Positions 464 to 59,160 of a stretch of 64,000 nt of DNA are shown piece after piece; positions within the stretch are counted from its first letter, which is position 1; each line of letters opens with the position of its first letter. The stretch is taken from positions 150,660,001-150,724,000 of the forward strand of contig OX597817.1 in assembly GCA_951406725.2 (NCBI GenBank), in the 5' to 3' direction. Source of the stretch: Octopus vulgaris. Its lineage: Eukaryota. The notes beneath the pieces were generated by a model. The model saw nothing but the letters and a program-made list of their open reading frames with translations. It was not told the origin of the DNA and did not search any database. The translations under genes were made by a program, and so were the position numbers.

Positions 464-832
464 TAACAAGAACAGTCAAAGAGCACAAACCTCTGCACAG
501 GCAACACCACTGTCCTCTCAACGATTAGCTGGAGATAATTTTTAAAATGGGAATATCTGAAATAAACTCTACTGCTCACACAAAGGAGAATACTAAAAAT
601 GAACCTGACCACTTTCGAAAATTAAGTAAAAACACTGGTAAAATAATCCAAAATCCTTGTCTGGTACAGGATCGATCCCAAAATCTAATCAGTTCGTGCC
701 AGTCATGAGGCCAAAATTCCCTGAAAGTTTCATCCAAATCCGTCCAGTGATTCTAGAGATATCTTGTCCACAGACAAATAAACAAACACAACTGAAAACA
801 ATACTTCCACCTTTACTAAGGCAGACATAATA
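464..832. mobile_element. DINE-1/HINE-like non-autonomous Helentron
   Basis: Starts aacaag, has an internal acctctgc motif and an acagacaaa run, and ends in a degenerate hairpin (acttccacctt...aaggcagacataataat). Confidence 0.5.
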
Positions 833-1420
833 ATAAAGACAAAATTTGAATTAAGATTTCATCCTCATTGTTTTAACATCCACTTTTTCATGCTTGCATG
901 GGTCAGATGGAATTTATTGAGGTAGGTCTTCTATGGCTGGATGCCTTTTATATCACCAACCCTCACCTGCCTCAAATTAAGGTAATATCTCTCCATGACC
1001 AGACAGGCTTTCGTGGAAGATTGAAACAAAGGACACTACTTGCATGATGTTGATAGTAGTTTACTATCATGCAATGTCAAAGCAAGGAAACAATAACACA
1101 AGCATGCATGCATGCACACACACATGACAGGTCTTAGTTTCCAGCTACCAAATCCATTCAAAAGGATTTGGTTGGCCAGGGGCTATAGAAGACATTTACC
1201 CCAGTTGCCATTCAGTTTAACTGAACCCAAAATCACGTGGTTGGGAAACCAACTTCTTACTACATGGCTATTACTGCACCTTGTTTTAAATCTCATTATT
1301 TAATAGATGAAGAAAATGTATATTTTCATGCTTAACTAATTATATTAGATTAAATATTTTATTCTAGGATAAATGCAAATAAATGTTTTAGTTTAAGATT
1401 AACAAACTTGTAACATTTTC

Positions 1421-1777: not shown

Positions 1778-2204
1778 GAAACACTTGAAAAGTTGGTCTA
1801 GTGGGTCAAAGAACCGGAAACAGAACTTGTTAGTTTAAAAAAAAAGTTTAATTTTAGGGCAAAAACAACCAGATTAGCTTTTTTCTAGGAAATGGGATAG
1901 GTCTTTATGAATGCAAAATTATTCCATTTGGGGATTGATGAGGCAACTTCTCATTAGGAATTTCTCTTTCTTTAAATCCGTTTATTTAGATAAACAAGTT
2001 TTGTTCTTGTTGGTAATCTTGTTTAGTCCCAAGTTAGCTCTGAGTGGTCACAGACATTCCATCCATAACTATCCCATCCTTCTAACAGGCATTGCATACT
2101 TATGACTCCAGCATCTAACGTGTACCATCTTTTTCAAGATGGTTTAGCGAATTTTAAAAATAAAGTTTTGACTATTTCAAGCAGGGTGACTAACCATATA
2201 GATG

Positions 2205-2360
2205 GGGAGAGTTTACGAAAAAAACAAACAGATGTATTAGTATAACACTCAGGAATAGAAAAAGTATTTTACGTTTTGAGCCTATGCTCTTCTACAGAAA
2301 GGGACACAAAAAAACAAGGAGAGAAAAAAATGAGTGTAGTGGTTAACGATCTATCATGTC
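2205..2360 (-). mobile_element. Short Penelope-like retro-insertion with hammerhead-like motif
   Basis: Perfect 17 bp flanking duplication gactaaccatatagatg (2188-2204, 2361-2377). Minus strand reads CUGUAGA-A-GAGC-AUAG-GCUC-AAAA-CGUA. Confidence 0.6.
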
Positions 2361-2578
2361 GACTAACCATATAGATGCTAGGGAAGTAGCTATTGAGAAA
2401 TTTTATTTTCTTGACTGGGGATACTATTAGAAATTTTGAGGTTCATATTTTATTGAATTAGGTATTTTAAAACCCCACTCAGTTTTCTTACCCATTTGAA
2501 AAGAAATAATTCCAATGATAGAAATTAGGAGCCATTATATAGATTGTTTGATTTTTACTAAATAAACAATGTAACTCA

Positions 2579-3293
2579 ATTTTGTTGTATCTTGGGAGGG
2601 TCATTATGCCAATAATAAACACATGCACTGATTCTTTTTCAGTTGTTTTTAATCAATATTAGTCCATTTGTTAACATTTATCCAATTAATCAATCAATTA
2701 TTTAATTGTTCAGTCTGTTAGGTTTGTCAAAATACTTTCACCATTCACAACCATACCAAGGACACGTCCTCTTTACTCTATGTCTGCCAGAGGGCATGTC
2801 ATCGATGAGGTTGCAAATGGAGACAAAAGGACTTTGACAAGCCTGATTGATTGATTGACTGACTGATTAATCAATTAATAAATTAGTTAATTGGTTAATT
2901 AGAATTGACTAATATGCACAGGCTGTGATAAGAAACCTACTTCCCAATCACATGGTTCCAGGTTCACTCCCACTGTGTGGCACCTTAGACAAGTGTCTTG
3001 GGCCAACCAAAGCCACGTGAGTGGATTTGGTAGATGGAAACTGAAAGAAACCCATTGCACATATATGTGTGTGTTTTTGTGTCTGCATTTATGGCCCTGT
3101 AACTTAACTATTCAGCAAAAGAGACTAATAGAATAAATACTAGGCTTTAAATTCTTCAAGGTGATGCTTCAGCATGGTCACTGTCTAATGACTGCAACAA
3201 GTAAAAAATAATAGATAATAGAACAGGAAGTGAAATAGAACCAGTGTGTGTGTTTCTTATTGGCATAATGACCCTCCCGAGATACAACAAAAT
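2579..3293. mobile_element. Fold-back element with ~55 bp terminal inverted repeats, interrupted by a SINE
   Basis: attttgttgtatcttgggagggtcattatgccaataa (from 2579) is inverted at about 3238-3293. Inner arms are also loosely inverted around 2780. Confidence 0.65.
2915..3210 (+). mobile_element. tRNA-type SINE family A (degenerate)
   Basis: Matches the family A copies at 33047-33408 and 36656-37052, with CpG decay. Confidence 0.75.
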
Positions 3294-3535
3294 GTTTCAA
3301 CACACAGGTTTACTTCAAAACTCTTGCAAACGAAATACAAAAATGAAGTAATCCAACTATTTTGAGACATACCCAACTTAAATTTAAAATCAGAAAGAAA
3401 GTGTGCCATTCATTTTATTTCATGCACTGAATTGTAGTATCTTGCTAACAATAAATTAATATTTTATCCAGTGCAAACATACTTGTTGACATGAAAAATC
3501 ATATTTGCGTTAGCATATCATGTAACTAAAGTAAT

Positions 3536-3643
3536 CTAATTTGTAATTAGTTCTATGCTGAATACGTTGTCATTAGCTCCGTTGCATCTCTGGATCTTTG
3601 GATTCTCTTGTAGATTGCCTTCAAGGCTTTCCTTCACTTGTAA
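3536..3643 (-). other. Candidate terminal exon of a minus-strand transcript
   Basis: Strong acceptor tctttgttttttcctttacaaaccctAG. Phase 0 reads LQVKESLEGNLQENPKIQRCNGANDNVFSIELITN*; phase 1 reads VTSEGKP*. Confidence 0.3.
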
Positions 3644-3771
3644 CTAGGGTTTGTAAAGGAAAAAACAAAGATTTTTAATGCCACAATATTTAGACATTGC
3701 TAGTGAAAAGTATCAGCTATCTTAACTGTTATATGTTAGAAAGGGAGAACTTGGGTCACTCATCCTACTAG

Positions 3772-4083
3772 TGGAGGCACATGGCCTAGTGGTTAGAGCA
3801 GCGGACTCGCAGTCAAGGGATCGCAGGTTCGAATCTCAGATCAGGTGATGTGTGTATTTATGAGTGAAACACCTAAGCTCCATGTGGCTCCGGCAGAAGG
3901 TTATTGCAAACTTCTGTTGACTCTTTCGCCACAACTTTCTCTCACTCTTTCCTCCTGCATCTTGCAGCTCACCTGTGATGGACTGGTGTCCCGTCCAGGT
4001 GGGGAACCTATATGTCAAGGAAACTGGGGAAACTAGCCCTTATGAGCCAGGCATGGCTTGAGAAGGAACAAACATATCTAACA
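3772..4083 (+). mobile_element. tRNA-type SINE family C
   Basis: A/B-box-like head (tggcctagtggttagagc...ggttcgaatc) and 14 bp TSD actcatcctactag (3758-3771, 4084-4097). Sister copy at 43953-44243. Confidence 0.85.
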
Positions 4084-4584
4084 ACTCATCCTACTAGAAA
4101 TAGTAACTCGTGGGTATCATCTTAAACAAAGAAGGACACGTTGCATAATGTAATCATGTATACATTATGTCTCAAAATAAGATGGATTGTCATGACTGGA
4201 ATGCTGTTGATAAATCAGCTTGATCAGAGCAGGGATTAAACAACTATAACGACTTATGTAAATAAAAAAATAGCAATGTCATTTGTCCACCACAAAAGCA
4301 TGTTTGAGTTTCTTGACTTGTATCAGCATGTTACACATTTTTTGCAAACATAAGGCTCATTCACCAGTGTCATTTGTTTCCAGTTCTTCACGTAAACATG
4401 AGTGGGCTGTTTTTTGTTTGATATCCTGGGACATTATTATTTCATTTGGAAACATGTGGGAGTAGGCAGTGCTATAACATACACTCATCTGAGCCATGCT
4501 AGCATGAAAAAGTAGACATTAAAACAATGATAATGATGATACTAACTAGGATGGTAATAAGTCTAGTTGGAAGATATTAAGCGA

Positions 4585-4983
4585 CTATAATCTTTCGATC
4601 ACCTCTGTCTATGCCGCATCCTTCATGTCCGATGGCATCACTTTGTCTCCAACAGTTCAGTGCGACACCAGTGCAAAATCACCTCCCTCCGACAAGTCAT
4701 CCTAACAAGACGTCTGCATTGGTTGGGTCATGCCCTCCGTCGTCAACCAGGAGAATTCGTCTATGAAGCTCCCCCTCAGGGTTGGCGAATGCGATGTGGT
4801 GGACAACGAAAAACCTGGCTAATGACAGTCAAGGCTGATCTGGAATCCAGGAGTGGTTGGAGATCACGTGGTCGTTAGCTTCAAATCGCCAGGACTGGTC
4901 GGCGTTTGTGAGAGATGCAGCATTGAGGATGAATGAAGCCAGCTCAACCCACCCTGGGTGAATGCTGTCTCAAGACAAGACAA
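4585..4983 (+). mobile_element. RTE-clade LINE 3' fragment
   Basis: Translation RRLHWLGHALRR...GGQRKTWLMTVKADL matches RTE ORF C-termini; short caaga repeat tail. Confidence 0.8.
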
Positions 4984-5091
4984 AAAGATTAGTTTATTGT
5001 AGTCAAATGCAAAACAACTGATTAATTAATAAGACTGAATCAGCAAAGAAAAATATTAATAGGATTCATCCCTTTCTTTATTCAGATAAGG

Positions 5092-5412
5092 TGAAAGCAT
5101 GTGGCTCAATGGTTAGGGTATATGACTGACAATCATGAGGTTGTGAGGTCGATTCCTTGTGGTGTGTTGTAACCTTGAGCAAGATATTTTATTTCTTGTT
5201 GCTCCAGTCCACTCAGCTGGCAAAAATGAGTAGTACCTGTATTTCAAGGGGCCAGCCTTGTCTATTCTGTGTCATGCTGAATCTCCCTGAGAACTATGTT
5301 AAGGGCATGTATGTCTGTGGAGTGCCCAGCCACTTGCACATTAATTCATGAGCAGGCTGTTCCATCAATTGGATCAACTGGAATGCTTGTTGTTGTAATT
5401 GACAAAGTGCCA
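5092..5412 (+). mobile_element. tRNA-type SINE family B
   Basis: Head gtggctcaatggttaggg...gtcgattcc and core gttgctccagtccactcagctggcaaaaatgag, shared with the copies near 37760, 42275 and 54540. Confidence 0.8.
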
Positions 5413-5526
5413 GTTATTCAGATGATTATTAATTCAAAGTTGTTTTTTTTTTTGTTTATTTGGTTCTGAAAGGACCTATCAGTTACCATAAATGATAACT
5501 TCTAGAATGTGAGAAAACAAACAAAC

Positions 5527-5713
5527 CTTGAATTGAACATCTGTTCAATATTTTTGTATCCGTATTTTGAAATAGATAATAAAGTTTATCATCGAATGTA
5601 AACATAAACATGTTGCTCAAACAAACAACTGATGTGTGATTTCTGCAAAATTTGTTTTGAATGCAAAGCTTTTGGTTATGCTCAGAATCAATTAAAGAAC
5701 AACCTGATGATAT
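5527..5713 (-). other. Candidate internal exon, minus strand
   Basis: ttttgtttAG acceptor, 62 open codons plus 1 nt (ISSGCSLIDSEHNQKLCIQNK...ILNRCSIQ), AAG|GTttgt donor. No homolog recognised. Confidence 0.3.
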
Positions 5714-5794
5714 CTAAACAAAATACTTTGCATTAACTTTTCGGATACCTATGTACTTAAGACTGCCCCTGGTTCTGTTACAGTCTTCTTGTTT

Positions 5795-6249
5795 TAGCCC
5801 TTTAGCATTCAGATTATTCTGTTAAATGTTAGACTTTTTGCATTCAAGTTGTCTTTAATTAATTATTTCTTGATTGCCCACAAGGGGCTAAAGGACAAAC
5901 AAGGACAGACAAAGGGATTAAGTCGATTACATCGACCCCAGTGCGCAACTGGTACTTATTTAATCGACCCCGAAAGGATGAAAAGCAAAGTCAACCTTGG
6001 TGGAATTTGAACTCAGAACATAGCAGCAGACGAAATACTGCTAAGCATTTCACCCAGCGTGCTAACGATTCTGCCAGCTTGCCACCTTTAATTAATTGTA
6101 CATTATTTTGTAGCTTTGAAATTTTGATAATATGATTATTTTATAATGGCATTGAAGAGTAGGTGTGATACACTAGATCTGGCTGTTTAGAACATAAAGC
6201 AGGTAGCAATTTGGGCTGGATATGGCTGGTTTAAATGCTAAAGGTTTAA
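5795..6249. mobile_element. piggyBac-like MITE with nested SINE family D (about 5866-6088, minus)
   Basis: Termini ccctttagcatt...aatgctaaagg, the same as at 38829-39474 and 56237-56420. Confidence 0.7.
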
Positions 6250-6291
6250 GTTATCTAAATTAAAATCTTCCAACAAAATATATAAATTTGT

Positions 6292-6718
6292 AGGAGAGTA
6301 TTGTAGTTTGCTTGAAGCATTGTGTATTGTTTGTAAAAAATAAAAAGTTTTGAATGGTACAACAATGCACTATAATACAAAAAATGGACTATATCCCTAT
6401 AGTAATTTAGTTATCCATAGTCCAATGATATTTCGGAATACAATTCCTTCTTCAGATATTCTTAGATGGAGTCGCTGCTATAATCGGTTTTCCAATGGCT
6501 TTCTTTTTTCGGAAGCATCTCAGCAGTGGTCTCATGAAGCTCCTTCCGGAGTTCCTCATGAGAAGTGCATGAGGTCATAGACATAGCCGACCTCATGCAC
6601 CTGAAGAAGGAATTGCATTCTGAAATATCATCGGACTATGGATAACTAAATTACAACAGGTATATAGTCCATTTTTTATATTATAGTGCATTGTTGTACC
6701 ATTCAAAACTTTTTATTC
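6292..6718. mobile_element. Penelope-like fold-back insertion with two inverted hammerhead-like cores
   Basis: 13 bp TSD tatataaatttgt (6279-6291, 6719-6731). Inverted arms of about 117 bp (6339-6455, 6601-6717), each containing CUGAAGA-A-stem-GAAA-UAUC. Confidence 0.7.
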
Positions 6719-8054
6719 TATATAAATTTGTGTTCTAAACACCAGCTTGATAATGAATTACTTTACTAAATGCTTCATTTGTTTCAAAATTAATTAAAAC
6801 AAAGGCAATGCATTTCAACAAATATGGTAACAAAAAGGTTCTTCTTTATCCAACTGAACCTGTTTACTTACAGAGGATAGAAAATTCAATCATATCTTGC
6901 TTGCAGTTTCCTATTTTGTTGAAATGTATGGTCTTGCATACGAATGCATTTTATTCTACATGTGAATATGAGTAATTTATTTATAACAAAATAAAGAAAA
7001 CGTGACTGTACATGCAATCCATTTCATGCTTAGCTTATTTATTCCTGTTTTGTGTTAGATGAAGTATGTTAAGCTGAACTTTGTGGCATATATAAAAGTT
7101 ATGTAGCTTGATTTTTTTCTTTTTATTTTGTTATATCTTCTTCTTAGATATCTTATAGTCACGCATTTGTATTATAATTGTGTGTTTGTATACAATGGCT
7201 GAAATTTAGTTAATTCTTATGAAAATTGTGTTAGAAAAGCCCAGTGACATCAGAATATTATGCAAAAAGGTAGAGACAGAAGAGAGGTGTAGCTGTGTAC
7301 AGAAATTGACAGGGAATTAAAACTGGGTGTACCAGATGTGTTGGCACGGCTAGTAACACACACAAAAACTGGTACACATGTCTAAAACTAGTACACTGCT
7401 ATCTCTGTGACATGATTTGCTGCACTGAATGAAGATAGACTTGAAGATAGCAGAGTAGTTAGAATTAGTGAAGATAGCTGCTTCTAGAACTATTGTTTGT
7501 GAAATTTTTCAACTCATGTAAAGAGTGAATTATACAAGGCAAGTGTCACACATATGTAATACTGTATGAAATGTTTGAGATGAGTTCTTGTTGGTATGAT
7601 TCTAATTTTTCATATGTTAACCTCATCTCGAGAGATAAAACATTTCTTTTTAAATATTTACATCTGCACCTATATTTTCAAGAACCTGTATTTTCCTGAT
7701 GTGAATTGTGTTAGTCTTTTTCAATGTTGCCCTATCAGACTGTGGTGGTGGATTAGGATTTGCAGTGAAAGACATAGATTAATTGTTGACAGTAGAAAGG
7801 AGAGGTCAGTTGTTGTGGGGAGTGAGAATCTTGCCCTGAATCTGTTAGGAAGAAAGAGAAAGACTTTTGTAGGCAGGTAAATGATAACATTAAATTGAAG
7901 AAGTAGTGTGGAGAATGAGGTGGGAAACCAGAGAGAAGGAGAGAGTGCGAGAGAGAGACAGACAGACAGATTGTGTGTGCAAAGGAGTCAGAAGCATGTG
8001 ATAAATGAAGATAGAGAAAACTGGTAATGACTGCTCTGGAGCAGACATATAATC

Positions 8055-8375
8055 ATTATCATCATTGTCATTTAATGTCCGTTTTCCATGCTAGCATGGG
8101 TTGGATGGTTTGACTGGGATCTGGGAAGCCAGAAGGCTGCTCCAGACTCAAGTCTGATCTGGCAGTGTTTCTACAGCTGGATGCCCTTCCTAATGCCAAC
8201 CACTCCGTAAGTGTAGTGGGTGATTTTTACGTGCCAACAGCACAGGGGCCAGAGGAGGCTGGCAACGGCCATGATCGGTTGGTGCTTTTTACGTGCCACC
8301 AGCACGGAAGCCAGTCAAAGTGGTGCTGGCATTGGCCACATTTGGATGGTACTTTTCATGTGCCTCCAACACAGG
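8055..8375 (-). mobile_element. RTE-type LINE 3' end (GAT-tailed repeat)
   Basis: Reverse complement of the 1421-1777 family. Confidence 0.75.
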
Positions 8376-8849
8376 TATCACAGCTACAATTTCCATTTGA
8401 TTTTTATTTTGATGTTGATGTAATGTGAATGAATAATGCATTTTCATCATCATCTACCATTTTTTATGCCTTAATGAAATTTTTTTTAAACTGTTGGTTA
8501 GAAACAACTCTGTTGTCTTATTACTTGTTGCAATCAGTGTCTCTTCCAGAATATACTGCAACCAGTCAACATTTTTGTTATGTATGTCTTACAGTGTTGA
8601 CTGGGTGCATTTTATTGAACCACTGGTTCTAGAGAGGTTATTCCATGCAAATGGACTAAATAAAAAGTACTCTTGGTCTGGTATCAGTTCTTATTTGGTG
8701 TTACTGCTGTCTCAGATGAGTAGTGAAGAAAGAATGTGGCTTACAAAGTATATGTCAACCTCTTATACATTCCATTCTTATGGTACAGTTTCCTATCAAT
8801 AAGAACTCATAAACCAGACCGTGTGGCTCTATCTTCCTATCAGTAACTA

Positions 8850-9705
8850 CTATATACACTCAAATAATAGTCGATTTCATGTAAAAGTCGACCCCCTATT
8901 TTGGGGCGAAAAATTGGGTATTTTCCATAGACCCTGTATAAAAGTCGACCCTAGTATTTCATGAACAATAGGACAACATTTGTGGGTCAAGGTACTGTTT
9001 TATCCTGTACGTAGAAATACACTGTTACAAAATTGTGTGGCTACCTTACAGCTACAAAGAAGAAAACGTTTTCAGCGAAGACTGTTGGTGGTGGAAAGTG
9101 TTGTTGTGCTTCTACTTATTTTATCAATTTTGGCATTTAAAAAATTAAGTTGCATTTAATTAATTAGAAATAGAAATACACCACTAATATCCTGTACCAC
9201 AATACACTTGTGATGAGTGTGACTTTAACCACAAATATGAAAACAGTGTAATATCCTTGAAGAGTTATAATGTGAAACAATCTGAGTCGGTATCAGCTGT
9301 ATGCTGCGTATTACGGTATGTAGTGGCATGCTGGTAACAGGTATATATGTTACCAGTGGTAATATAACATAATTATGAGATATAAATTGATTTCACTTAG
9401 CTAGTCTGTTAAGTTTGATGGGAACACATAAAAGAGACAGAATAAATATTTATAAGAGCTACACAGTCTGGTTTATGAGTCCTGTTATTTACTAGGACAT
9501 TTTTTTTTATGCATAGAATTGGTAATATTACTGTAATTCATTGTGTTTTTGTTTTTATTTGTTTAGAGATTAGTTGGGCTTCTGCTGCTGATACAGTACT
9601 TCGGATTCTAATTTGGATGTTCATCCCCTCAGAAGTAGTACCCATGTAATAGTCAATCCTATAAAAATGGTCTAAAAAATTCGACTTTTTCATGAGTATA
9701 TACAG
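8850..9705. mobile_element. Tc2/pogo-like non-autonomous DNA transposon
   Basis: Decayed TIRs (ta|ctatatacactc...agtcga and tcgact...gagtatatacag|ta) with TA on both flanks; repeated aaaagtcgaccc subterminal motif. Confidence 0.6.
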
Positions 9706-11956
9706 TACTTTAAGAAATTGTACTATATAGGAGAACTAAAGAATTCCCTCTGCCATGTATCAGTTCTTATTCCGCATTATTGCCTACATTGAAGCTTGTG
9801 ACTCTTCCAGTCATTACTTACAGCTGCATACACTTATTCGACAACACTGTTATTCTGGCTAAGGCAATGAGGATAAAGCATGCCCCATTAATGAGATAAA
9901 ATAGGCTTCTGAAACTCCATTATGTAAGTAGGGGAGAAAGCTTAGCTGCTGAATGAGCTTATGCTGTACTGTTGGCAACTAGATGTGATTCCCAATTGCC
10001 ATATTCTATATACTAGGGCAATGCATTATTTTTTCCCAAGAAATAAAGGGAAAGTGATTAAAAACAAACACGGATAAGGTCTACAGAAACTGAAATACTG
10101 GTAGGTGGATAATCTTGCAGATAACTGCAATCTGTTACTGAAGATGGAGAGAGAAGGAGACTCTTGTCGGCACCCTATACTCCACATGGAGTCAAAGGAA
10201 GACAGTGTCATAGCTGCTCACTTTTGCATGATAATCCAGAATTGCTGAGAGCATTGGGTTTCACAGATAGGATGATGGAGAAAGGCTATATTTCTTATTT
10301 CTTTATTGCCCACAAGGGGGCTAAACACAGAGGGGACAAACAAGGACAGACAAAGGGATTTAGTCAATTATATCGACCCCAGTGCGATTTAGTCAATTAT
10401 ATCGACTGGTACTCATTTAATCGACCCCGGAAAGATGAAAGGAGAGGCTATATTCCTGACATAGCCAACACATTCTAACAGAGTGGGTGATTGAATTTAT
10501 TATGATATTCTTCTTGATTATTATTTCATTGATTCTTTAATGATGAAAAGTTTGCCAAACTACAAAACTGGATACCAAGAATAGTTAGTTTAGTTCTCTA
10601 TCCTTTCAGTCATCAGAATTTGCTTTACAATAAAAATTGGGGGGGGGGGGCACAAGGTGAATTTTCTCAAGTGCATATGTTGGTGGAATGTGGTAACCAT
10701 TTACTTCGATTCCAGCACTACCCTCATTTATCACAGGGGTTTGGTTCCAAAAATTCACTATAAGTCAATCAGTGATAAATGAACTATCTCCATGCACTTT
10801 TGTAAATGGAATGAATGGTAGATTCATTGACACCAAACTTTGTAGTCCACAGAAATGAAACTTTCGCCACCATGCATTTTCTTGATCATCTTTTCTCTCT
10901 TTCTCTCTCTCTCTTTTTTTTTTTTTTGTTGAGAATATACCCATCTGCATTGTTTGTTAAGACCAGGCACCTTTGTATTTTTTCTATTCACTGGTCCCAT
11001 GTTAATGGATACATAAATCTGTATAAAAAGTACACAACCTTGCAGCATGGTCATGTGCCGTTCAAGAATTTGGACCTGGAGATCTCCATTTCCAGCGACT
11101 TCGAGGGCCACCTCCCAGTAGTGTCGGGTCTCAACAAAGAGCTCTCGACTACAAGATGACCAAAGTTTTCTTTTTTTTCCAAGGTCTGGGATCTCCTGCC
11201 CCTAAGCCCTAGACCATCACCTAATCACCCTTACCCGTCTTGTTGCTTAACAACAACAACAGCAGCATGGTCATGTAGACATACACAATAACCAGTGAAT
11301 TCTGGGTGGTTGAGAATTGTAGGTAGCCACTGAGGCATGTTTTTGTGGTACAAGCAGAATCTGTGTTTGCTAACTTGTGTTATCATTCTGTGATAAGCAT
11401 AACATGGTTCACAACCGAGCATCCTGAATCAGTGATAAATGAGGCTACTTAGTTTGTCGACTTTTAAGATGTTTACACTCAGAAAGGGCAGTGATAAGGG
11501 TAACAAACTACTCTTAGCATGAAATCCACCATCTCACCTGTCACTTTTAATTAATTCAGGGCCAATATTTGTAGGGAAGATAATAGCTGATTGAATTAAG
11601 ATCAATAAGTCAGGGACACTGGTTACATCAATCATGCACATATACACAGGTTCGATATGTGGAAGATTTGGCTGCTATTTCTAGCTGGACACGTGATCGT
11701 ATAATGGCACATTCGTAGACTCATTCATATTATTGTTTGCACTGGAAGAAGGTTGAGTTATTTGAAGGTGAAATATACTGTCACTTGGCCTGTGAGAAAT
11801 AGCTACTAAATCACACCGTTTTATTAAAAAAAAACATGAATCATACATTGTATAATATAGACTTAGATAACAGAACGTCTGGACTGCATTTCATTATGAA
11901 TCACCTTGATTCAAGGTTGCACTGAATATAAATATATATATGTGTGTGTGTGTATT

Positions 11957-12255
11957 ATCTTTTACGTGTTTCGGTCGTTTGACTGCGGCCATGCTGGGGC
12001 ACTGTTTTGAAGGGTTTTAGTTGAACAAATCGATCTAGGATTTTTTTTAAAGCCTAGTACTCATTCTAATTGTGCGGGACAGTTACAAAACTATATAAAT
12101 ACGACGGGCGTTTTTCAGTTTCCGTCTACCAGATCCACTCGCAAGGCTTTCGTTGGCCCGAGGATATGGTAGAAGATACTTGCCCAAGGTGCCACGCAGT
12201 AGGACTGAACCCGGAACCACGTGGTCGGGAAGCAAGCTTCTTACCACACAGTCAC
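11957..12255 (-). mobile_element. SINE family A with internal deletion
   Basis: Similar to 36656-37052; CpGs retained. Confidence 0.8.
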
Positions 12256-12372
12256 ACCATTATATATGTATAAATGTGCGTATATACGTATGTATGTGTC
12301 ATGTATACAACATGGTTTTTACATCCACTTTATCATGCTGACTTGAATTGGGCAAGAATTTTTATAGCAGTA

Positions 12373-15223: not shown

Positions 15224-16084
15224 TTATATGGTTCAGGCCATTTTTTATTCATACGTCAACTTTACTTCAACTTAGTGTATGTAAACGAATTTATTTTGAC
15301 AAGTATCTCTTGAGATCCTGCTGATGATGTGAATACGTGTGTGCATTTTTTTCCACATATTTTTATCTTAGGGAAACGTAATTGTGTGCAAAGTTACGGA
15401 AAAAGAAGTATTGTATTTTAATATGTATGTTTTGATTGATATTTCAATCGATTTCGTTTACATTATATATTTAATATATTATCAACTTGGTCCTTTTCGT
15501 TGACTTTGCATTAACATGCAAGACAAAATATGTCTTGTGATTGAATTTTGTAGACGGAAACACGTTTATCCCCCACCTAGTATTGGTTTGTTTACGTCTT
15601 CGTCCCATAGCAGTTCGGCCCAAAAGAACTGATGGTATAAGTACCAGATTTATAAAGAAAGTATGGGGTCGATTTGTTCGACTAAACCCTTCAAGGCGAC
15701 GCCCCAACATGGCCGTAGTCCAATGACTGGAACAAGTAAAAGATAAAAGTTGAAAAGTAAAAAATGGCTGCCGGGTTTTCCTTTTTACGAATCTTTCTTA
15801 TAACAGTTCAGTAGACTGTTATACTTTGTTCAAAGTGTGGACCGTCTTTTGAAAGTGGCTCAAAAGTACGTGCTAATTTACCAAGGCTTTCAACAGGTTA
15901 GCACGATTGTGAATCAAGAACTGAACAATACCCAAGGAATGTCTTAAGTACTTTAATACCTTTGACTCGAAATTATTTTTCTCACAGTAATGTGTGACAG
16001 CTGGCTACAGACTATTCTAAGTTTCAAGTTTCCATTGACATTTGCACTTAACGCGAGATGTTTTGCTGTTTCCATTTTAATATA

Positions 16085-16500
16085 ATTTTTTCCTCTTACA
16101 TTGAGGTAAAAGTTTTAGAGGGTACACGTTTTCAAATTGGCTCACATTTATCTACATTATCTAGATTTATTGGGTGTTTAGCGAGTTCTGTAATACTCTC
16201 AAATTCTGCTGGAAGTTCCGATGCTGTCAACGTCAGCACTTGCTGGGTCCTTTTGGCGCTATAGTTCTTTGCTTGATATTTTGTTTTTAAAACCACCCAC
16301 AAGAAGCAAGAAAGGTTTTAGCGATTTTTTCAACTACTCAGATAAACTCTTCCATGGTTTTACTGTGTATGTCAGTTTAATAGAATTACATTCATCTAAA
16401 TTTTGCATAGTAATTTATATTTTGTCAGGTCGATTTATCATGCTTTTTAAAGATGACAGTGCAAATCCTAATGATTTCACAACGGCACTTCTTTCACCCT
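16085..16500 (-). pseudogene. Fossil Tigger/pogo transposase fragments
   Basis: Frameshifted pieces GERSAVVKSLG, FLASCGWF, PASAD and NVDKCEPI*KRVPSKTF occur in the order of Tigger motifs (ASxGWF, ASAD, NxDETGLFWKRMPSRTF). Confidence 0.7.
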
Positions 16501-17911
16501 GCATGTTTTATAATCTTAAGTATCTGATGATATTGCTTTACGCTTACATGAATTGATGAGATAGCAAGATTAACAATAATTGGGTTTATATATATATAAT
16601 TACTGTGCTTTAAGAAGTCACGAAATTGCGACAATATAGGACAAATAAATAATACAGAACGTGAAGTATAATTCAATGGTTGATTTCTTATAAAGCAACA
16701 AGATGGTTCTTGATACGGAAGCTCAAATTTGAACGGGAAATTCTGGGACGGCCACCAACGGGAATGTTTTTTTGCTTAACCTTTTCATGATTCTAGTTGT
16801 TTAATTGCCCCAATGTTAAACTTCGTTTATAACAGTTTCATTGACAGGGGAAATATAAAGTGAAATATGTGTGTGTGTGTGCGCGCGCACATATATAAAT
16901 TGTTAGCTGTGTGTTTTCTCGATGTGCTGTATTTCAGTGATGTTTAGCGTTATGTATTCACATGTAAAAGAGGTCTAGATATGTGCACCAGCGTTAGTTC
17001 ATATCTATGCATTTGAAAGGAGTGGGCGTGATTTATACATGGGAAGACTTTCCTACCCACCGCTGATTTGTGACCGCATTCTATTTTCCCATAGTCTTTT
17101 TCAAACCGACAGTAAATCCTTTAAGATGTCTGACCTGCTAGAAATAGCAGGCAAATATTTTTATTAAATTACACTCCGTGCTCATAAACAAGTAAGACAT
17201 TAAATAAATATTCTTTCTTGTACACGGATAAAATTACCATAAGTTCAACAATATGATATTACCTCCCAGTATAGTGTCGATAATGCTCGCTTTTATCATT
17301 TGTATCCTGTGCACATTTGCAAACTGAACAAACATAATAGTCCATAAACAAAACAAATTAAAGTGGAGATGGGTCGGGTTCTTTAACTCCATTCAAGTCG
17401 AGGTTAGTTGCCACATAAGTATATAAATCAATCGGCCATTTAAAAAAAAATTTCGGGCAGTAAGAAGAGCAGTGCCTACTGCACTTCACACGCTTTCCGA
17501 AACTAGTGGAAGGGAAACAGACACCAAATGCTTTTAATAGAATAGTCCCTGTTAAAGGCACCCAAGGTGTCATGCGATGGTGTTAAACTGGTGACAGATG
17601 AAGTTTATCATCGAAGAAGGTCATGATGGGGTTTGAATTCAGAACGCAAAGTGTTGTCGGAACAAATATCGCAATACATTCGATCCGATGTTCTTACAGT
17701 TCCGCCAATCTACCATCTTGGATCAGTACTTTTTGTTTTTATCGACCCCGAAAGAATGGAAAGTAAAGTTGACCTTGGCTGGATTTGATCTCAGGATGCT
17801 GTGTGTCAGAACAAATACTGAGACATGTCCGACATTCTAACGACTCCCCCACTTCGTGTTGATTGGTTGGGTACTAAAACAATGGATTTATTCACTGTTA
17901 TACCCGATATA

Positions 17912-18322
17912 TGATCTTTTCTGTTTGAACGGCAATTTTTTATAGCGGTGTCATATGAAATTGTCACCCATAATTATGACCCTAGTATCGATCTATTGCA
18001 TTTCAATCTCTTTTAGGGTTAGGGGTGGGGGAATGGTATCTTATTTTCTTCAGAAATGTAAATAAACCCAATCTGTTTCTTAAACGAGGGACATATTCAT
18101 ACGGCACAGAATGTTTGTTTTTTTTTTACCTCAATAGACGTCATTGATTGGTTGAAATTGAAGAAGAAAAAAACAACAAATATCTTACAAACTATAGAAT
18201 TTTCTCAATAAAGCCAAGAGAAAAAGATGTTTTATAAACATTCTACCAGTATACGAAATTTAAAAGTGTTTAGTTACGTGGAAATTATATTAAAAAAACT
18301 GCCGTTCAAACCGAAAAGATCC
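17912..18322 (+). mobile_element. Merlin-like MITE, copy 1
   Basis: TIR (G)GATCTTTTCGGTTTGAACGGCAG and 8 bp TSD ccgatata. Confidence 0.85.
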
Positions 18323-18477
18323 CCGATATATATACTCTTCTATCAGTATCAAATGGTCCGGGTAGAGTCAACGAATGAAAACCAGTTTATAGTCATCATT
18401 AGGGAATATTCTCCCACTTAGTGTTACAACAGTTGAATAAAAAAAAGAAGCTATATACTGTAACGCGCGGAGTCATA

Positions 18478-18885
18478 GGATCTTTACCTTTTTGACCTGC
18501 AGATTAAGAAAAATAATTTTTTGTAACTAAACACTTTCAAACTTCAGACACTAGTAGAATGTGTCATATAAAACATCTTTTACTGTTAGCATTTTTGAGA
18601 AAAATTATATTTACGAAGTAATTTCACATCAAAGTAGTCCTATTTCGGTAATTTCAACCAATGATTGACGTGTATTCAGCTGAATAAAATTACTGCCGTT
18701 GTTTGTCAACAAGAACTTCCGGCAGTGTATTTTTCGTTTGTCACTGTTATTTATGACAACCCTAACCCTTTCTCAAAAATGCTAAAAGATGTTTTATATG
18801 ACACATTCTACCAGTGTCCGAAGTTTGGAAGTGTTTAGTTACAAAAAATAAATTTTAAAATCTGTTGGTCAAAAGGTAAAGATCC
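18478..18885. mobile_element. Merlin-like MITE, second subfamily with long imperfect TIRs
   Basis: GGATCTTTACCTTTT...AAAAGGTAAAGATCC; TSD gagtcata/gagtccta. Confidence 0.8.
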
Positions 18886-20228
18886 GAGTCCTACACTTTG
18901 TATCACTCAGTGGCAGCCATTCTTTTGTAGATTTTCGATACAAAAGTTGTCCCTGATTACATTACTTGAAGTATCATTGGACATCATGGAGTAGGGAAGT
19001 GCTATCAAAACGAGTTCCTCTTGTCACAGACAATAAGATAATATTTACATTACACATAGAATCGCTCCAACGAGGAAGCCAGGTACCTGGTCGCTCGTCA
19101 CAAATAACTAAATCTTCCTCAAATCATACTACCCTTCTATCTTAAAAAGGAGACTGATTGGGAAAATAAGATAAGATATTCATGGCTAGACACAACAACT
19201 ACATCGGCTGCAAATATTTATACGAATTATTCACTATCTTATGTCCATGTACTGCGGTTCTCAATCTCTATGCTGGACAAAATTCTTTTGATAATATTTT
19301 TGTACTAATATAATTGCAGGAGAATTGCCGTAAACAAAACCGAAACTTAGGCTAGGGTTTTAGCTCTACTTTTACCACTAAATTCTGTTTGCCTGCTGCC
19401 ATTCAACGCCAGGTCAAAAACCTAATACAATAAACCTATAATAACCAATAATAAAATGTGTTCTCAATTTTAGAGACATCTACAAAAAAAAAAGTAAAAA
19501 ACAAACCAACAAACACAAAAACAAAACAACTATAAAACAGGACCGTCATTTGCAAGGCTACGGAACTAAACACTAGAACCAAAAAAAAAGTTTTAGATCA
19601 ATGAGCTAATATCCAGGATATTATGAGTTAAATTGCGTATCTGATGACGTATGAAGTAAGAATTATTCATCTTGTTACTTGAGTTTGCATGTAAATCTAA
19701 AACTAGATTTATATCTCTTCTGGGACGCACACACTACTCATTGCTTACATGGGAGCAGCTGTACTGAACGTTCCCAATTTGCCAGGAAAAGAGGATGAGT
19801 CCCTTTTGTAAGTCTTCCAGCCTTGTGAAATCGATGTGATTATGTTCAGCTTATATAGTCGTACGTTAATGTATGCAGGAAGACCACGGACGGAAATATT
19901 GACATAGACTCTGAAGCTGGATAAAAAGTAGATAAAAAAATTTGAGCACCATTTCATTTCCTCAGGAAAACTAGAGGACCTTCTATACTTATACATAAAC
20001 TAAGAAGCAATAACTTCTTTATTTCTGACTCTATTATTATTATTATTATTATTATGAACACACTATTGTACATTATCGACTTCTTATATAACGACTCGGT
20101 CGTTTTTTAACTCCTATCTCTAGCAATTGCCGATACTAATTTGTACCCTTGTTTATTAACTTGCTTTTGGGTTTTAATTGCTAACGGGCCACCTATATTA
20201 TAATATATTAAATATATTATGATATTCG

Positions 20229-20588
20229 TTGTGTGGTAAGTAGCTTGCTTACCAACTACATGATTCTGGGTTCAGTCCCATTGCGTGGCACTTTGGGCAA
20301 GTGTCTTCTACAATAGCCTTATGAGTGGATTTGGTAGACGGAAACTGAAAGAAACCCGTCATATAGATATAGATATGTGTGTGTGTGCTTGTGTCTGTGT
20401 TTGTCCCCCTACCATCGCTTGACAACCGATGTTGGTGAGTTCACGTCCCTGTAACTTAGCGTTTCGGCAAAATGGACCGATAGAATAAGTACTAGGCTTA
20501 GAAAGAATAAGTCTTGGGGATGATTTGTTCGACTAAAGGTGGTGCTCTAGCATGGCCGCAATCAGATGACTGAAACAAATAAAAGAAT
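20229..20588 (+). mobile_element. SINE family A
   Basis: Near full-length match to other family A copies. Confidence 0.85.
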
Positions 20589-20592
20589 ATAT

Positions 20593-21001
20593 AGATCTTT
20601 TCGGTTTGAACGGCAGTTTTTTTCTAGCGGTATCATATGAAATTGTCACCCATAATTATGACCCTAGAATAGATTTATTGCATTTCAATCTCTTTTAGGG
20701 TTAGGGGTGGGAGAAGGGTATCTTTTCTTCTTCACAAATGTAAATAAACCCAATCTGTTTTTTGAGGGACATATTCATACGGCACAGAATGCTTTTTAAC
20801 TCAATAGACGTCACTGATTGGTTGAAATTGCAGAAATTGAAGAAAAAAAAAACAAAACAAATATCTTACAAACTATAGAATTTTCTCAATAAAGCCAAGA
20901 GAAAAATATGTCTTATAAACACATTCTACCAGTATACGAAGTTTAAAATTTTTTAGTTACCTAGAAATTGTTAAAAACTGCCGTTCAAACCGAAAAGATC
21001 C
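20593..21001 (+). mobile_element. Merlin-like MITE, copy 2
   Basis: Same TIR; TSD gaatatat (20585-20592, 21002-21009). Confidence 0.85.
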
Positions 21002-21035
<34 letters not shown>

Positions 21036-21774
21036 TACTGCGCGTCACTTTGGACTGGTTAGTGTCTTGTGAGTGAATTCGGTAGATGAAACTGTGCTGA
21101 AGCCTATCATATATGCGCGTGCGCGTTTTTGAGCTCGTGTTCGCCTCTCTCCCGCCACAGTCCTTGACAACCGCTGTTGGTTTATTTTCGCTCCGTAACC
21201 AAGCAGTTCGGCAAAAGCGACCGGTAGGATAAGTACCAGACTTAAAAAGTGAGTGCTGAGGTTGATTTGTCCGACTAAACCTTTCAAAGCGGTGCTCCGG
21301 CAGTCCAGTGACCGAAACAAGCAAAAGGTAAGATATATATGAGCTTAATAAGCTTGAGCCGTCACATTCAAGCGAGTATGATCTGGCAGCTTGAAACACG
21401 CTTTCGTTAATGAATTTAAGAACCTATGTATAATAGTTGCAAGGAGACATAGGCATCCTCTCAATTGTCCTGCTTTTGACCCTGCGGAACAAGGGGAGAA
21501 AGAGATGCGTCAGAACTAGTCTGGTAGGATCTTTTTAGAATTCATTCAACCATTTGAATTATTTCACATTTTCTTTGTTGTAATTTTATATGCTAATGAT
21601 GTAAATCCACACCCACTTTTTTTTTTTTTTTTTTAGAAGTTAATAAAAAAGTTACAAGCATTTAAAATTGCTAAAGGGCACTCCGACAGCAAATGCTAAC
21701 CGTCACAATCTTTGACGATTCCTTATAGTACTCCTCATCCTACCCTAAAAGAAATATTCAGGGATTGTAGCGAC

Positions 21775-22189
21775 GGATCTTTTCGGTTTGACCGGCAGTT
21801 TTTTTAATATAATTTCTACGTAACTAAACACTTTTAAACTTCGTATACTGGTAGAATGTGTTTATAAAACATCTTTTTCTCTTGGCTTTATTGAGAAAAT
21901 TCTATAGTTTGTAAGATATTTGTTGTTTTTCTTCAATTTCTGCAATTTCAACCAATCAATGACGTCTATTGAGGTGAAAACATTCTGTGCCGTATGAATA
22001 TGTCCCTCGTTTAAGAAACAGATTGGGTTTATTTACATTTCTAAAGAAAAAAAGTTACCCTTCTCCCCACCCCTAATCCTAACCCTAAAACAGATTGAAA
22101 TGCAATAGATCGATACTAGGGTCATAATTATGGGTGACAATTTCATATGACACCGCTAGAAAAAGCTGCCGTTCAAACCGAAAAGATCC
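21775..22189 (-). mobile_element. Merlin-like MITE, copy 3 (inverted)
   Basis: Same TIR; TSD gtagcgac/gtagcgat. Confidence 0.85.
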
Positions 22190-23204
22190 GTAGCGATTTA
22201 GAATTTAGTCGTGTATTTATAATTGTGTGTGTGTGTGAGTGAAGTACAAATCCATTTCCTTGAAGTGAGCAATGATTTGTATATTTATGTTGTTGAAAGA
22301 GACTAAGTTATCATGTCCTCCTTGAAAGTTCTCAAGGTTAGTGTTTTTAGATTCAATGTTTGACCGAAGGGGGGGGGAGACAAAATAACAAATGAGGGTT
22401 TGTGTAGTATTAAAATGTGTAAGGACAAGTGAGAGAAAAGTAGGAGCGGATTTTTTAAAAAAATGTGATAAATTCACTTCTTGTATTGTCGTGTGGTTAG
22501 AGGTCAATGATCACAAGTGTCAAAGTTAAGTGTTTGGCGGAATAGTGAAAATCATTATGAGTGGAGGTAGACATAAATGAACAGTGTTAAAGTCCAGTGT
22601 GCCTGTGTGTGATACTTATATGTCGAAGGGTAGGAAAATAAGGAGGAGGAAAGTATTGATCGTGGATCAGTGATCGGTATTAAAAGGGGAAGAGTCAGTC
22701 TCGAAACTACAAATTCATCTTCCTACGCATACGAGCTAATCTAAATTCATTAACACACACACACACACTCTCTCTTCCTCTCTCTCTCCACCCCCCCCCC
22801 TCTCTCTCTTTCTCTCTCCACACACACATACACGAGTGAATAAAGAGACGAAAGAAACATTCGAAAGATTTGGTTGAAGTTGCATGTATTTAATAAAAGT
22901 TTGATTCAGAGCCATATCGGACAGGTACAATTGTCCTACACGGCCGAAACTTTTACGTGAAACTGGGTCAAACTGTATTTCATAGCACATGAGTCGCATT
23001 TTTTTTTTTTTTTTTTTTTACCTAAAAATATCTCAAAACATCAATCCAGGTCCTAATATGCTAATTTTGATCCCGGCGGTTTGTTCTCTCTAACCTGATT
23101 CTATAACTATTTAAATTTAAGCATTATTAGATAATGCTTTCGTACTTTTGTAATGTTTTGTAATGTACTAGATTGATTTAAATATTACATGTTTTAATGC
23201 TTTA

Positions 23205-23286
23205 AAAAACTTTTTTCCTGAATATGCCCTCCCGAAATTGGGATGCGTCTAATCTGCCTGTTCGTCTTATATGCCATTAAATACGG
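23205..23286. mobile_element. One end of a Tc2-like DNA element
   Basis: Terminus ...cgtcttatatgccattaaatacgg|ta. The other end was not found. Confidence 0.4.
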
Positions 23287-23333
23287 TATGTGCGCGCGTA
23301 TATACTTTTTATGTACAACGTTAATTAACACTT

Positions 23334-24955
23334 TGTTGTGTCTGGGGAGAGTAAAATTTCCACTTATTTCTTATTTTTATTTCCCTAAAATTTTCGTTGC
23401 ATCTTGCAACCTTTTCAATAGTCTTGACTCTGTCCGTTATTTACACTGCAATCCTTTTTGTTTGTTTCTGCGCATGTGTGTGGGTCAGTGTGTGTGTGCC
23501 TATGTATGTATGTATGTATGTATGTATGTATGTATGTATGTATGTATGTATGTATGTATGTATGTATGCATGCATGCATGCATGGATGTATGCATGCATG
23601 CATGCATGCATGTATGCATGCATGCATGTATATGTGTATGCATGCATGCATGTATGCAGCATGTATATGTATGCATGCATGTATGTGATGTATGCATGTA
23701 TATGTACATGCATGTATGCATGTGTATACATGCATGTATGCATGTATACATGTATGCATGCATGTATACATGTATGTATGCATGCATGTATACATGTATG
23801 TATGCATGCATGTATACATGTATGTATGCATGCATGTATACATGTATGTATGCATGCATGTATACATGTATGTATGCATGCATGTATGCATGCATGTATG
23901 ATGCATGTATGCATGTATGTATGTATGTATGCATGCATGTATGCATGTATGTATGCATGCATGTATGATGTATCATGCATGCATGTATGTATGTATGCAT
24001 GTATACATGTATGTATGCATGTATGTATGTATACATGTGTATGCATGCATGTATGTATGTATGCATGCATGTATACATGTATGCATGCATGTATACATGT
24101 ATGTATGTATGCATGCATGATATATGTATGCATGCATGTATATATGTATGTATGCATGCATGCATGTATATATGTATGTATGCATGCATGCATATATATG
24201 TATGCATGCATGTATGTATATGTATGCATGCATGTATATATGTATGTATGCATGTATATATGTATGTATGCATGCATGCATGTATATATGTATGCATGTA
24301 TATATGTATGCATGCATGTATGTATGTATGTATGCATGCATGCATATGTATGTATGTATGCATGCATGTATATATGTATGCATGCATGCATGTATATATG
24401 TATGCATGCATGCATGTATATATGTATGCATGCATGCATATATGTATGTATGCATATGTATGTATGCATGCATGCATGTATGTATGTATATATGTATGCA
24501 TGCATGTGTGTGTGTATGTATGTGTATATGTATGTATGCATGCATGTGTATATGTATGTATGCATGCATGTGTATATGTATGTATGTATGCATGTGTGTA
24601 TGTATGCATGCATGCATGTGTGTATGTATGTATGCATGTGTATATGTATGTATATGTATACGTATGCATGTGTATTTGTATGTATGCATGTGTGTGTATG
24701 TATGTATGTATATATATGTGTGTGTGTATGCATAGTATGTATGTGTGTGCATCTGTATGTATGTATTCTGCATACTCATGTGCTTGCATAAAAAGGAATG
24801 CAGTGTAAATAACGGACGGAGTCAGACTATTGAAAAGATTGCAAGACGCAACGAAAATTTTAAGAAAATAAAAATAATAAATAAGTGGAAATTTTACCGG
24901 TGAGTGTGTTAAATTATAAGACACAAAAATAAAATGACTCTCCCCAGACACAACA
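23334..24955. mobile_element. Penelope-like inverted arms with hammerhead-like motif, enclosing a satellite
   Basis: Arms at about 23334-23459 and 24790-24955 are reverse complements. The left arm reads UUGAAAA-G-GUUGC-AAGAU-GCAAC-GAAA-AUUU on the minus strand. Confidence 0.65.
23501..24770. repeat. Compound (TATG)/(CATG)/(TA) microsatellite, about 1.3 kb
   Basis: Directly visible; almost continuous purine-pyrimidine alternation. Confidence 0.97.
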
Positions 24956-25205
24956 GAATATGCTTCAACACACGAACTCATATAAAGAATCTTGCAAACC
25001 AAATCCAAAAACGAAGTTAATCAAAACTGTCTGACTTTATTGTACTTGCTTCTTACATTATACGCAGAAGATATCTTCATAGATGATTGAAATTGTGTAT
25101 CGGCAGAAAACCTGTGGGTTTCTATGTGTATCACAATATATATATATATATATAAGCAATAATAAATCTCTGAGCGAGATGCAAACAGTAGCAGCACGGA
25201 ATTGG

Positions 25206-25584
25206 GAAGTATATTTGCTACCTAAAAGTGTCTAACCCATAGAGGACGATGCAACCGTTGTTTATATCCCCAGGAAGACATCTCCTCCAGCTGGCTAACG
25301 ACACACTGTCTGTGTCCGATCAGTATTTGCGAAGGGAAGTCATCGTTCCCATCTCTAGCCTTACGTGATGGAATCAGTTCTTATCCCTAGCTGTTGATTG
25401 TCGCACGCTGATGACGGGTTACTATTCAGAAACCCGGGACCATGTGTATCAGGTAAGGCTAGAGATGGGAACGATGATTTCCCTTCGCAAATACTGATCG
25501 GACACAGTGTGTTGTTAGCCAGCTCGAGGAGATGTCTTCCTGGGGCTATAAACAACAGTAGCATTTAGGTGGCAAATATACTTC
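25206..25584 (+). mobile_element. Penelope-like fold-back with a type I hammerhead-like motif in the spacer
   Basis: Inverted arms 25206-25369 and 25448-25584, with (TA)n on both flanks. Spacer reads cgcacg-CUGAUGA-cgggttactattca-GAAA-CCCGGG-AC-catgtg. Confidence 0.7.
25402..25446 (+). ncRNA. Degenerate minimal hammerhead ribozyme motif
   Basis: CUGAUGA 25408-25414, GAAA 25429-25432, palindromic CCCGGG, and stem I cgcacg/catgtg. The cleavage triplet reads GAC rather than GUC. Confidence 0.55.
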
Positions 25585-26149
25585 ACTATATATATATATA
25601 TATATATAATGGACTCTCCCGTTGTTAGACGACGTATGAGGGTTCGACAATTTCTTACCGAACAACCACACAAATGATTTGTTTATAGTGATCAAATGTT
25701 TGTGTAGACATAAGCTCACTCTCTCCATCAAATCGACATTACATGCACAGGTGCAACTGGGTGCCACATGTCAGATGTCGAAATGATCGCAGAGCGACGT
25801 GAAATGAAATGTTTTGCTCAAGAACATAACGCAACGATCCCGGAATCGTGAGTGCAACACCCTAACCACTAATCCATGCCTCTTTACACACACACACACA
25901 CACACATGTTAATATCTGTAGATGATAACGTTTTGGGGAATCTCGTGCGTAACTTCATGTTCAGCTGAAGTAAATTACACATAATGTGCTTAGATCTTCA
26001 GTGAACAGAACTTTTTTGTTGACTCTGTTGATGCACCATTTGGATATATATATCTACCCAGATATAAGTATAAAGCCGTGGTATGCATCTATTTATTATT
26101 TAAGTCGTCCTCATACGGGTCCTCCAGCGGCGCTTTCAGTCATCTCGGC

Positions 26150-36545: not shown

Positions 36546-37096
36546 TAGCGGTTCCCAACTTTTTCACTACCAAGGACTCCTTCTATTTAAATGAGTTTCC
36601 CCACGAACCCCATTTAATATGCTTATCCTTGTGTGTGTGTGTGTGTGTGTATATCCTCTTTTTTCCTCTTTTACTTGTTTCAGTCATTTGACTGCGGCCA
36701 TGCTGGAGCACCGCCTTTAGTCAAGCAAATCGACCCCAGGACTTATTCTTTGTAAGCCTAGTACTTATTCTATCGGTCTCTTTTGCCGAACCGCTAAGTT
36801 ACGGGGACGTAAACACACCAGCATCGGTTGTCAAGCGATGTTGGGGGGACAAACACACACACACACATATATATATATACATACATATATACGACGGGCT
36901 TCTTTCAGTTTCCGTCTACCAAATCCACTCACAAGGCTTTGGTCGGTCTGAAGCTATAGTAGAAGGCACTTTGCCCAAGGTGCCACGCAGTGCAACTGAA
37001 CCCGGAACCATGTGGTTGGTAAGCGAGCTACTTACCACACAGCCACTCCTGCATATATATATACTACCTTTGTGGACCCCAGGTTGGGAATCTCTG
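36546..37096. mobile_element. hAT-like MITE with nested full-length SINE family A (36656-37052, minus)
   Basis: TIRs tagcggttcccaac and gttgggaatctctg; 8 bp TSD atacagag/atatagag. Confidence 0.8.
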
Positions 37097-58912: not shown

Positions 58913-59117
58913 CTCTTTTACTTGTTTCATTCATTTGACTGTGGCCATGCATGGAGAACCACCTTTAGTCGAGGAAATCGACCCCAGGACTTATTCTTTG
59001 TAAGCCTAGTACTTATTCTATCGGTCTCTTTTGCTGAACCGCTAAGTTATGGGGATGTAAACACACCACCATCAGTTGTCAAGCGATGTTGGGGGGACAA
59101 ACACAAACACACATATA

Positions 59118-59160
<43 letters not shown>

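Follow-up and report, generated by a model that had tools for sequence, protein, structure and literature searches.

Penelope-like elements (PLEs) are the closest described relatives of the elements treated here, four repeats (E1 to E4) in a 64,000-nt stretch of the Octopus vulgaris genome (assembly GCA_951406725.2, contig OX597817.1, positions 150,660,001 to 150,724,000, forward strand), which is called the window in the following. According to the parts of the published work that were consulted, to which all our statements on the literature refer, the hammerhead consensus of PLE pseudo-long terminal repeats (pLTRs) consists of CUGANGAH, a stem II opened by a G-C pair, GAAAN, a palindrome, and NUH, with an extra base between positions 9 and 10.1, a G10.1-C11.1 pair, and a variant with a U3-A8 core (Cervera and de la Pena, 2014; PMC4209133). 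In the same study, motifs are mostly single and derive from truncated elements, pairs on opposite strands lie at distances of 100-700 bp, genomes contain several families each, and activity is low and dimer-dependent. Cleavage of dimers formed via palindromic stem III has been reported by Lunse, Weinberg, and Breaker (PMC5785218, as cited in PMC6765202). PLEs with an endonuclease (EN+) show strong 5' truncation, an inverted 5' copy, AT-rich targets, a C-terminal GIY-YIG domain, and a one-sided tail between two start sites of the reverse transcriptase (RT) (Craig et al., 2021, PMC8557442; Frangieh et al., 2024, PMC11167929), and two such internal start sites have been shown for an anole Penelope element (PMC11167929). 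Animal retrozymes, such as the non-LTR (long terminal repeat) retrozymes of mussels with repeats of 350-390 bp, have been proposed to derive from PLEs (PMC7229834; bioRxiv 10.64898/2026.07.22.740005).

Origin of the four elements

With a probability of about 0.88, E1, E2, and E3 are the 3' pLTRs of three different PLE families and E4 is a non-coding 357-nt repeat likely copied by the protein of such an element, all four carrying a hammerhead-shaped motif. They share one layout because three of them are Penelope ends and the fourth is a likely passenger of such elements. This layout, thought atypical in the original prediction made from the window's letters, agrees with the published Penelope consensus (PMC4209133); E1 to E4 are thus a known system with one core variant that was not found in print. 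The main text of the 2026 octopus repeat annotation consulted has no mention of hammerheads or ribozymes. The features of the four elements are as follows.

2188..2204, left copy of the E1 target-site duplication (TSD), 17 bp, exact
2205..2360, minus strand, E1, short form of the 3' pLTR of a PLE family with a CxxxxCxxC linker (Neptune-like)
2301-2266, minus strand, E1 minimal hammerhead motif, window core CUGUAGA, palindrome ACGU
2361..2377, right copy of the E1 TSD, 17 bp, exact
6279..6291, left copy of the E2 TSD, 13 bp, exact
6292..6575, minus strand, E2 main copy, 5'-truncated 3' pLTR of a second PLE family
6457-6425, minus strand, E2 main hammerhead, CUGAAGA, palindrome AUAU, core intact
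6601..6718, plus strand, E2 partial copy in inverted orientation; its hammerhead (6601-6631) has C11.1 changed to U
6719..6731, right copy of the E2 TSD, 13 bp, exact
23332..23475, minus strand, E3 inverted arm, 41 nt of which are deleted internally
23421-23385, minus strand, hammerhead of the E3 arm, UUGAAAA, U3-A8 core, intact, palindrome AAUU
23476..24789, TATG/CATG microsatellite between the E3 arms
24790..25014, plus strand, E3 main copy, the 3' pLTR of a third PLE family, ending in a tail of ~60 nt
24827-24863, plus strand, E3 main hammerhead, G10.1 changed to A
25148..25369, minus strand, E4 inverted arm, covering positions 194-357 of the unit and a tail of ~50 nt, without hammerhead, adjoining (TA)n
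25369..25584, plus strand, E4 direct arm of the 357-nt retrozyme-like unit, ending in (TA)n
25393-25451, plus strand, E4 type I hammerhead with long bulged stem I, CUGAUGA, palindrome (A)CCCGGG(U)

The four cores and palindromes that had been predicted are all present, and the three fold-backs and the two exact TSDs are confirmed, although the element limits had been drawn too narrowly, since E3, with its one-sided tail, reaches about 25014, and E4, also with a one-sided tail, begins as early as about 25148. Representative copies of the four families are also as dissimilar as had been claimed (best cross-family blastn E 0.042).

Families were collected from 2.8 Gb in 227 contigs, the window lying on contig C4. 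The first look gave 3580 (E1), 1828 (E2), 1915 (E3), and 2702 (E4) candidates, which are not copy numbers and of which 40 were scored each; alignments contain the 30 best loci per family and are therefore biased in favor of the window copies. Over all motif copies retrieved (E1 n=74, E2 n=53, E3 n=46, E4 n=38), the mean distance from the majority sequence is 7.6, 6.4, 4.2, and 9.3%, respectively, and the majority retains the core, the G-C opened stem II, GAAA, and the palindrome. Stem II letters differ wholly between the four families while pairing is nonetheless kept.

The link to PLEs is provided by protein frames on the same strand upstream of E1, E2, and E3, with an RT followed by a C-terminal GIY-YIG domain, as had been anticipated for long copies of Penelope-linked type I hammerhead elements. 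For E2, two long copies continue upstream into the end of a GIY-YIG frame, and a search with this frame end found the E2 motif downstream on the same strand in 12/12 loci; one of these frame loci gives an RVT_1 match over the cut-off (E 3.6e-13), which only E2 reaches. The RT part in E1 and E3 rests on tblastn and motif. The upstream extension of E1 is followed by E1 in all of the 25 loci found, ten of which run collinearly into a frame with the CxxxxCxxC linker and GIY-YIG (E 8.3e-4, below the Pfam cut-off). A search with the frame end of E3 showed the E3 motif downstream in 10/12 loci, and in the locus L166 the RT motif YRRYVDD, the Cys linker, and GIY-YIG lie within one 401-aa frame. GIY-YIG scores are mostly below the Pfam cut-off, and L165 alone is over it. 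Antisense frames near E1 (L027, L126, L128, and L195) were set aside as separate insertions because they are not collinear.

Insertion anatomy points in the same direction. E1 to E3 as a set show variable 5' truncation, inverted 5' copies, and optional tails, except that the 30 E1 copies have no adjacent inversion or tail and one distant inverted copy. Lengths of leftward extension in E2 and E3 were left out of account, as they stall at tracts of poly-A and microsatellite. Inverted upstream copies with differing breakpoints occur at 14/30 (E2), 10/30 (E3), and 16/30 (E4) loci, one-sided tails at 25/50 E3 ends and 16/37 E4 ends; element ends mostly adjoin (TA)n and targets are TA-rich. Truncation, inversion, tail, AT-rich targets, and GIY-YIG are common to these elements and to EN+ PLEs (PMC8557442, PMC11167929), and the Cys-rich linker before the endonuclease in Neptune and Nematis is also found in E1 and E3. 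In contrast to the 30-40 nt published, tails are about 51-60 nt here, and the likeness to those clades comes from linker motifs only. A possible degenerate TSD of E3 (23320-23332 and 25015-25027) matches at 11/13 positions.

Compared with the published hammerheads (PMC4209133), E2 is a direct match and E3 resembles the Schistosoma mansoni row UUGAAAAA, except for its extra base, which is G instead of the H of the consensus. In their family majority, E2, E3, and E4 have the core CUGANGA or its U3-A8 variant, and all four families have the extra base after A9, G10.1-C11.1, GAAA, palindromic positions 15-16, and NUH. Palindromic stem III is likewise shared with the short-stem-III Penelope hammerheads of PMC5785218. 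E4 differs by its long bulged stem I and by a second extra base, before G12, so that stem II is flanked by an extra base on both sides; one published row reads AGAAA. The prediction of one extra nucleotide per core accordingly stands for the layout and fails for the window copy of E4, just as GAAA, said to be in every window copy, is the family majority in E1 and reads AAAA in its window copy.

Several results weigh against this origin. No intact frame was seen for E1 to E3. Seven of the 12 E3 frame loci form one duplicated cluster and are not independent. At the 12 short motif loci, the Rfam hammerhead families had 0 matches at E up to 10, so that the Rfam check which the original prediction had suggested went against it, and neither single-strand nor two-strand folding (minimum-energy, cofolding) recovered the hammerhead fold, a result that is uninformative. 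For E4, four protein baits found no collinear frame or parent in 53 distinct loci. Its covariation score of 0.170 is reached in 0/500 shuffles; however, most of the double changes affect CpG pairs and resemble decay, and pairs with two-sided change stay at shuffle level (372/500). Circular-fold z-scores of four units are mixed (-2.8, -1.2, -3.1, and +1.2).

Rfam on the whole window gave 230 matches, of which the 150 listed are microsatellite artefacts, among which a weak hammerhead match could be hidden.

A hammerhead family with uridine at position 6

The E1 family core is C3 U4 G5 U6 N7 G8 A9 plus one extra A. Position 6 is U in 73/74 aligned copies, and exact 27-nt patterns find 17,496 matches with U6 and 208 with A6 (reversed-pattern controls, 0). 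Position 7 of the first 100 U6 matches listed is U in 38, A in 26, C in 23, and G in 13 (hand count). Thirty A6 loci examined include likely point revertants of the main E1 family and distinct sister subfamilies, one of which has CUGAGGA with U17. Contigs of four runs labelled as other organisms, for which variant figures are summed contig depths and not copy counts, show all four bases at position 7 and A, U, or C at position 17, G not being listed at 1%; A6 is not listed at 1% in the E1 motif either, and the other listed changes in core and stem II are at CpG sites only, plus a minor U6 to C. E1 drifts where a working hammerhead is free (positions 7 and 17), which argues for continued selection on the fold.

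Since E1 lacks the invariant A6 of the minimal PLE hammerhead, it is filed as a variant of it. In contrast to the U6 of E1, A6 is present in every row of the part of the PMC4209133 supplement searched, and no natural U6 hammerhead was found in the literature searched, outside of which lay Lunse et al. and one supplement file of PMC4209133. U6 is the only trait here that looks new, and the ability of E1 to cut is predicted. The closest precedent is the natural A6C variant of phage Bcep176, which is slow but active and prefers Mn2+ (PMC3088659, PMC7151607). Both have a natural substitution at the normally invariant position 6; however, E1 carries U and belongs to a family of eukaryotic retroelements whose motif is matched exactly >17,000 times.

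That E1 is a working natural hammerhead with U6, derived from A6 relatives still in the genome, kept across subfamilies, and accompanying a very large expansion, seems to us just short of an even chance. Its ribozyme would then be tuned-down or protein- or metal-dependent, and would be a natural test of the purpose of Penelope hammerheads. A plausible though somewhat doubtful alternative is that A6U killed catalysis and the family spread anyway, so that the motif would be either a relic that does not cut or a fold that binds protein. Position-6 changes do lower activity, as in A6C (PMC3088659, PMC7151607), and ribozyme-dead mutants of the anole Penelope element still insert in vitro (PMC11167929), whereas the free position 7, the non-G position 17, and a remainder of CpG changes with minor U6 to C form the pattern of catalytic constraint.

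The E1 copy in the window falls about 30 nt short of the typical length (~186 nt) and has AAAA in place of GAAA (G12 changed to A at 2277) and is predicted to be inactive because of the established role of G12. Only 6/30 E1 copies extend upstream; the other 24 share one 5' start within 10 nt, which suggests a short SINE-like (short interspersed nuclear element-like) non-autonomous form, of ~190 nt, or a strong stop site. Adjacent short E1 copies are contained in two loci.

A retrozyme-like family

E4 is a non-coding head-to-tail unit within the 150-450 nt of non-LTR retrozymes and has a type I hammerhead, whose stem I comprises 6 bp, a bulge, and then 5 more pairs. The core is intact in 42/58 copies, and 89.5% of pair cells in its stems are standard. 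In a second search, the unit start was preceded by the end of another unit in 18/30 loci; among 53 distinct loci (from 1495-2702 candidates) the longest run is about 1.7 units, and a complete double-unit array was not seen. An exact 39-nt pattern of E4 had 0 matches, as expected for an old family. The non-coding unit, head-to-tail junctions, type I hammerhead, and short palindromic helix III are shared with animal non-LTR retrozymes, from which E4 differs by the lack of long arrays, frequent inversions, a tail of ~51 nt, and a distance of ~9% from the majority. We consider with moderate confidence that E4 is a retrozyme-like passenger of PLEs. Its window copy has A at U16.1 (25439) and is predicted to be inactive because of the established role of the A15.1-U16.1 pair.

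GIY-YIG frames near E4 copies (L093, L098, L101, and others) were set aside as separate insertions, not being collinear. In L098 (about 770-1270, plus strand), another Penelope-like 3' end, which has a CUGAAGA-type motif of its own, is inserted directly upstream of an E4 copy. In the window, a different repeat (25610-25860, plus strand) begins right after the (TA)n of E4, and the ACTCTCC at 25613 belongs to it.

Alternative explanations

The original prediction took all four to be non-autonomous, ribozyme-bearing mini-retroelements with a life cycle of their own, which we regard as unlikely. E4 fits such a view and looks purely non-autonomous, as the only one of the four, and the common start of 24/30 E1 copies and the adjacent short copies at two loci would fit as well. 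E1, however, also has long, frame-linked copies, and the 5' ends of E2 and of E3 vary widely and run into RT/GIY-YIG frames, so that the proposed diversity of non-autonomous elements holds for E4 and partly for the short form of E1 and not for E2 and E3, which are truncated ends of protein-coding families. It is very improbable that the fold-backs are miniature inverted-repeat transposable elements (MITEs) or chance hairpins whose hammerhead likeness is pattern-matching. Rfam was blank, and loose descriptor matches do arise by chance: 40 order-3 Markov sequences gave on average 3.65 matches per window, 0.53 with a palindrome (maximum 2), compared with 10 matches in the window, 7 with a palindrome and 5/10 inside the four elements. 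A lone loose match is weak, and it is the family data that carry the case. The motifs are the family majority and are sited where PLEs carry them, the inverted arm is absent from half or more of the copies and differs in its breakpoints, and TSDs are 13-17 bp, whereas in MITEs the terminal inverted repeats are fixed and the TSD is short and of fixed length. Because the fold-backs vary between copies and their anatomy matches published Penelope insertions, they are not MITEs, a view also contradicted by the frame links of E1 to E3; the warning that such elements could be mislabelled as MITEs was right.

Proposed mode of insertion

Published work suggests that the element protein would nick AT-rich DNA and begin reverse transcription at one of two fixed sites in its RNA, which, we propose, would keep the 3' end constant, a tail being present or absent. 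Synthesis would usually stop early, often adding an inverted second copy, and would thereby produce fold-back stubs. Cleavage by the motif within the parent RNA would, by analogy, be slow and take place either as a dimer via the palindrome or with protein help. All four window copies are most likely inert, because the core is broken by changes in two of them and the arms of three would pair with each other upon transcription. When the fold-backs E2 and E4 of the window are folded, 76-78% of their bases are paired, so that the motif would be concealed in any read-through transcript.

The heptamer ACTCTCC forms the 3' end of E1 and E2 and lies 12-14 nt inside the end of E3. By a rough reckoning, chance is unlikely to have placed it at the ends of three families that are unrelated, and it may mark a preference for RT start. 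It had been noted at or near three of the 3' ends, which is correct; however, it is not general, for E4, a fifth PLE family, and E1 sister subfamilies end without it, and a role as universal end signal was rejected.

Other features of the window and of related families

In the fifth family there are intact RT/GIY-YIG frames of 781 aa (by hand count, 16 of the 148 listed), and a U3-A8 motif of the same type occurs in 17/30 loci, in 16 on the strand of the frame. It is likely young and recently active. Copies in L152-L155 (e.g., L155:781-2217 and 2139-4481, plus strand) have near-identical direct pLTRs and a second frame, of up to 479 aa, which overlaps from upstream and has no clear Pfam match.

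As to E3, the 3' untranslated region of the family carries a tract of the TATG/CATG type upstream of the pLTR. Seven near-identical copies of one E3-family insertion (L157-L163) lie at about 206.65-206.85 Mb of contig C1 (G000), six of them spaced about 15-17 kb apart as a tandem segmental duplication. At 24931-25014 (plus strand) of the window, the E3 end and tail are an ATG-started open frame (MTLPRHNRICFN...) that may begin the frame of the parent element; overlapping with this open frame is a GTGAGT...CCCCAG pair with a spacing of 48 nt, which could represent a small intron. A reading of ACTCTCC as splice acceptor in E3 was rejected, since the 41-nt deletion of the window arm does not obey GT-AG. 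An old fragment of the E3 end and tail, 73% identical, is found at 3267-3350 (plus strand), and two further UUG..AA descriptor matches with palindromes, at 53053 and 52329 (minus strand), may be chance. At the inversion junction of E2, a small perfect hairpin (6540-6600) is possibly a template-switch scar. The window is repeat-rich, with many copies of abundant SINE-like repeat families (12081-12255, 36667-37045, 42544-42933, 58915-59311, and others), and no host exon was recognised by eye among its 26 open frames of at least 110 aa.

Significance

For annotation, the lesson is that fold-back stubs of PLEs can pass for MITEs. E4 is a retrozyme-like family whose insertions look Penelope-made, and it fits the proposed origin of animal retrozymes. 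The role of Penelope hammerheads is at issue, as they cleave weakly in vitro and as insertion in one assay did not require cleavage. The abundant E1, with an altered core base yet with the other hammerhead rules kept, and with A6 sisters alongside, offers a paired natural comparison in the octopus genome.

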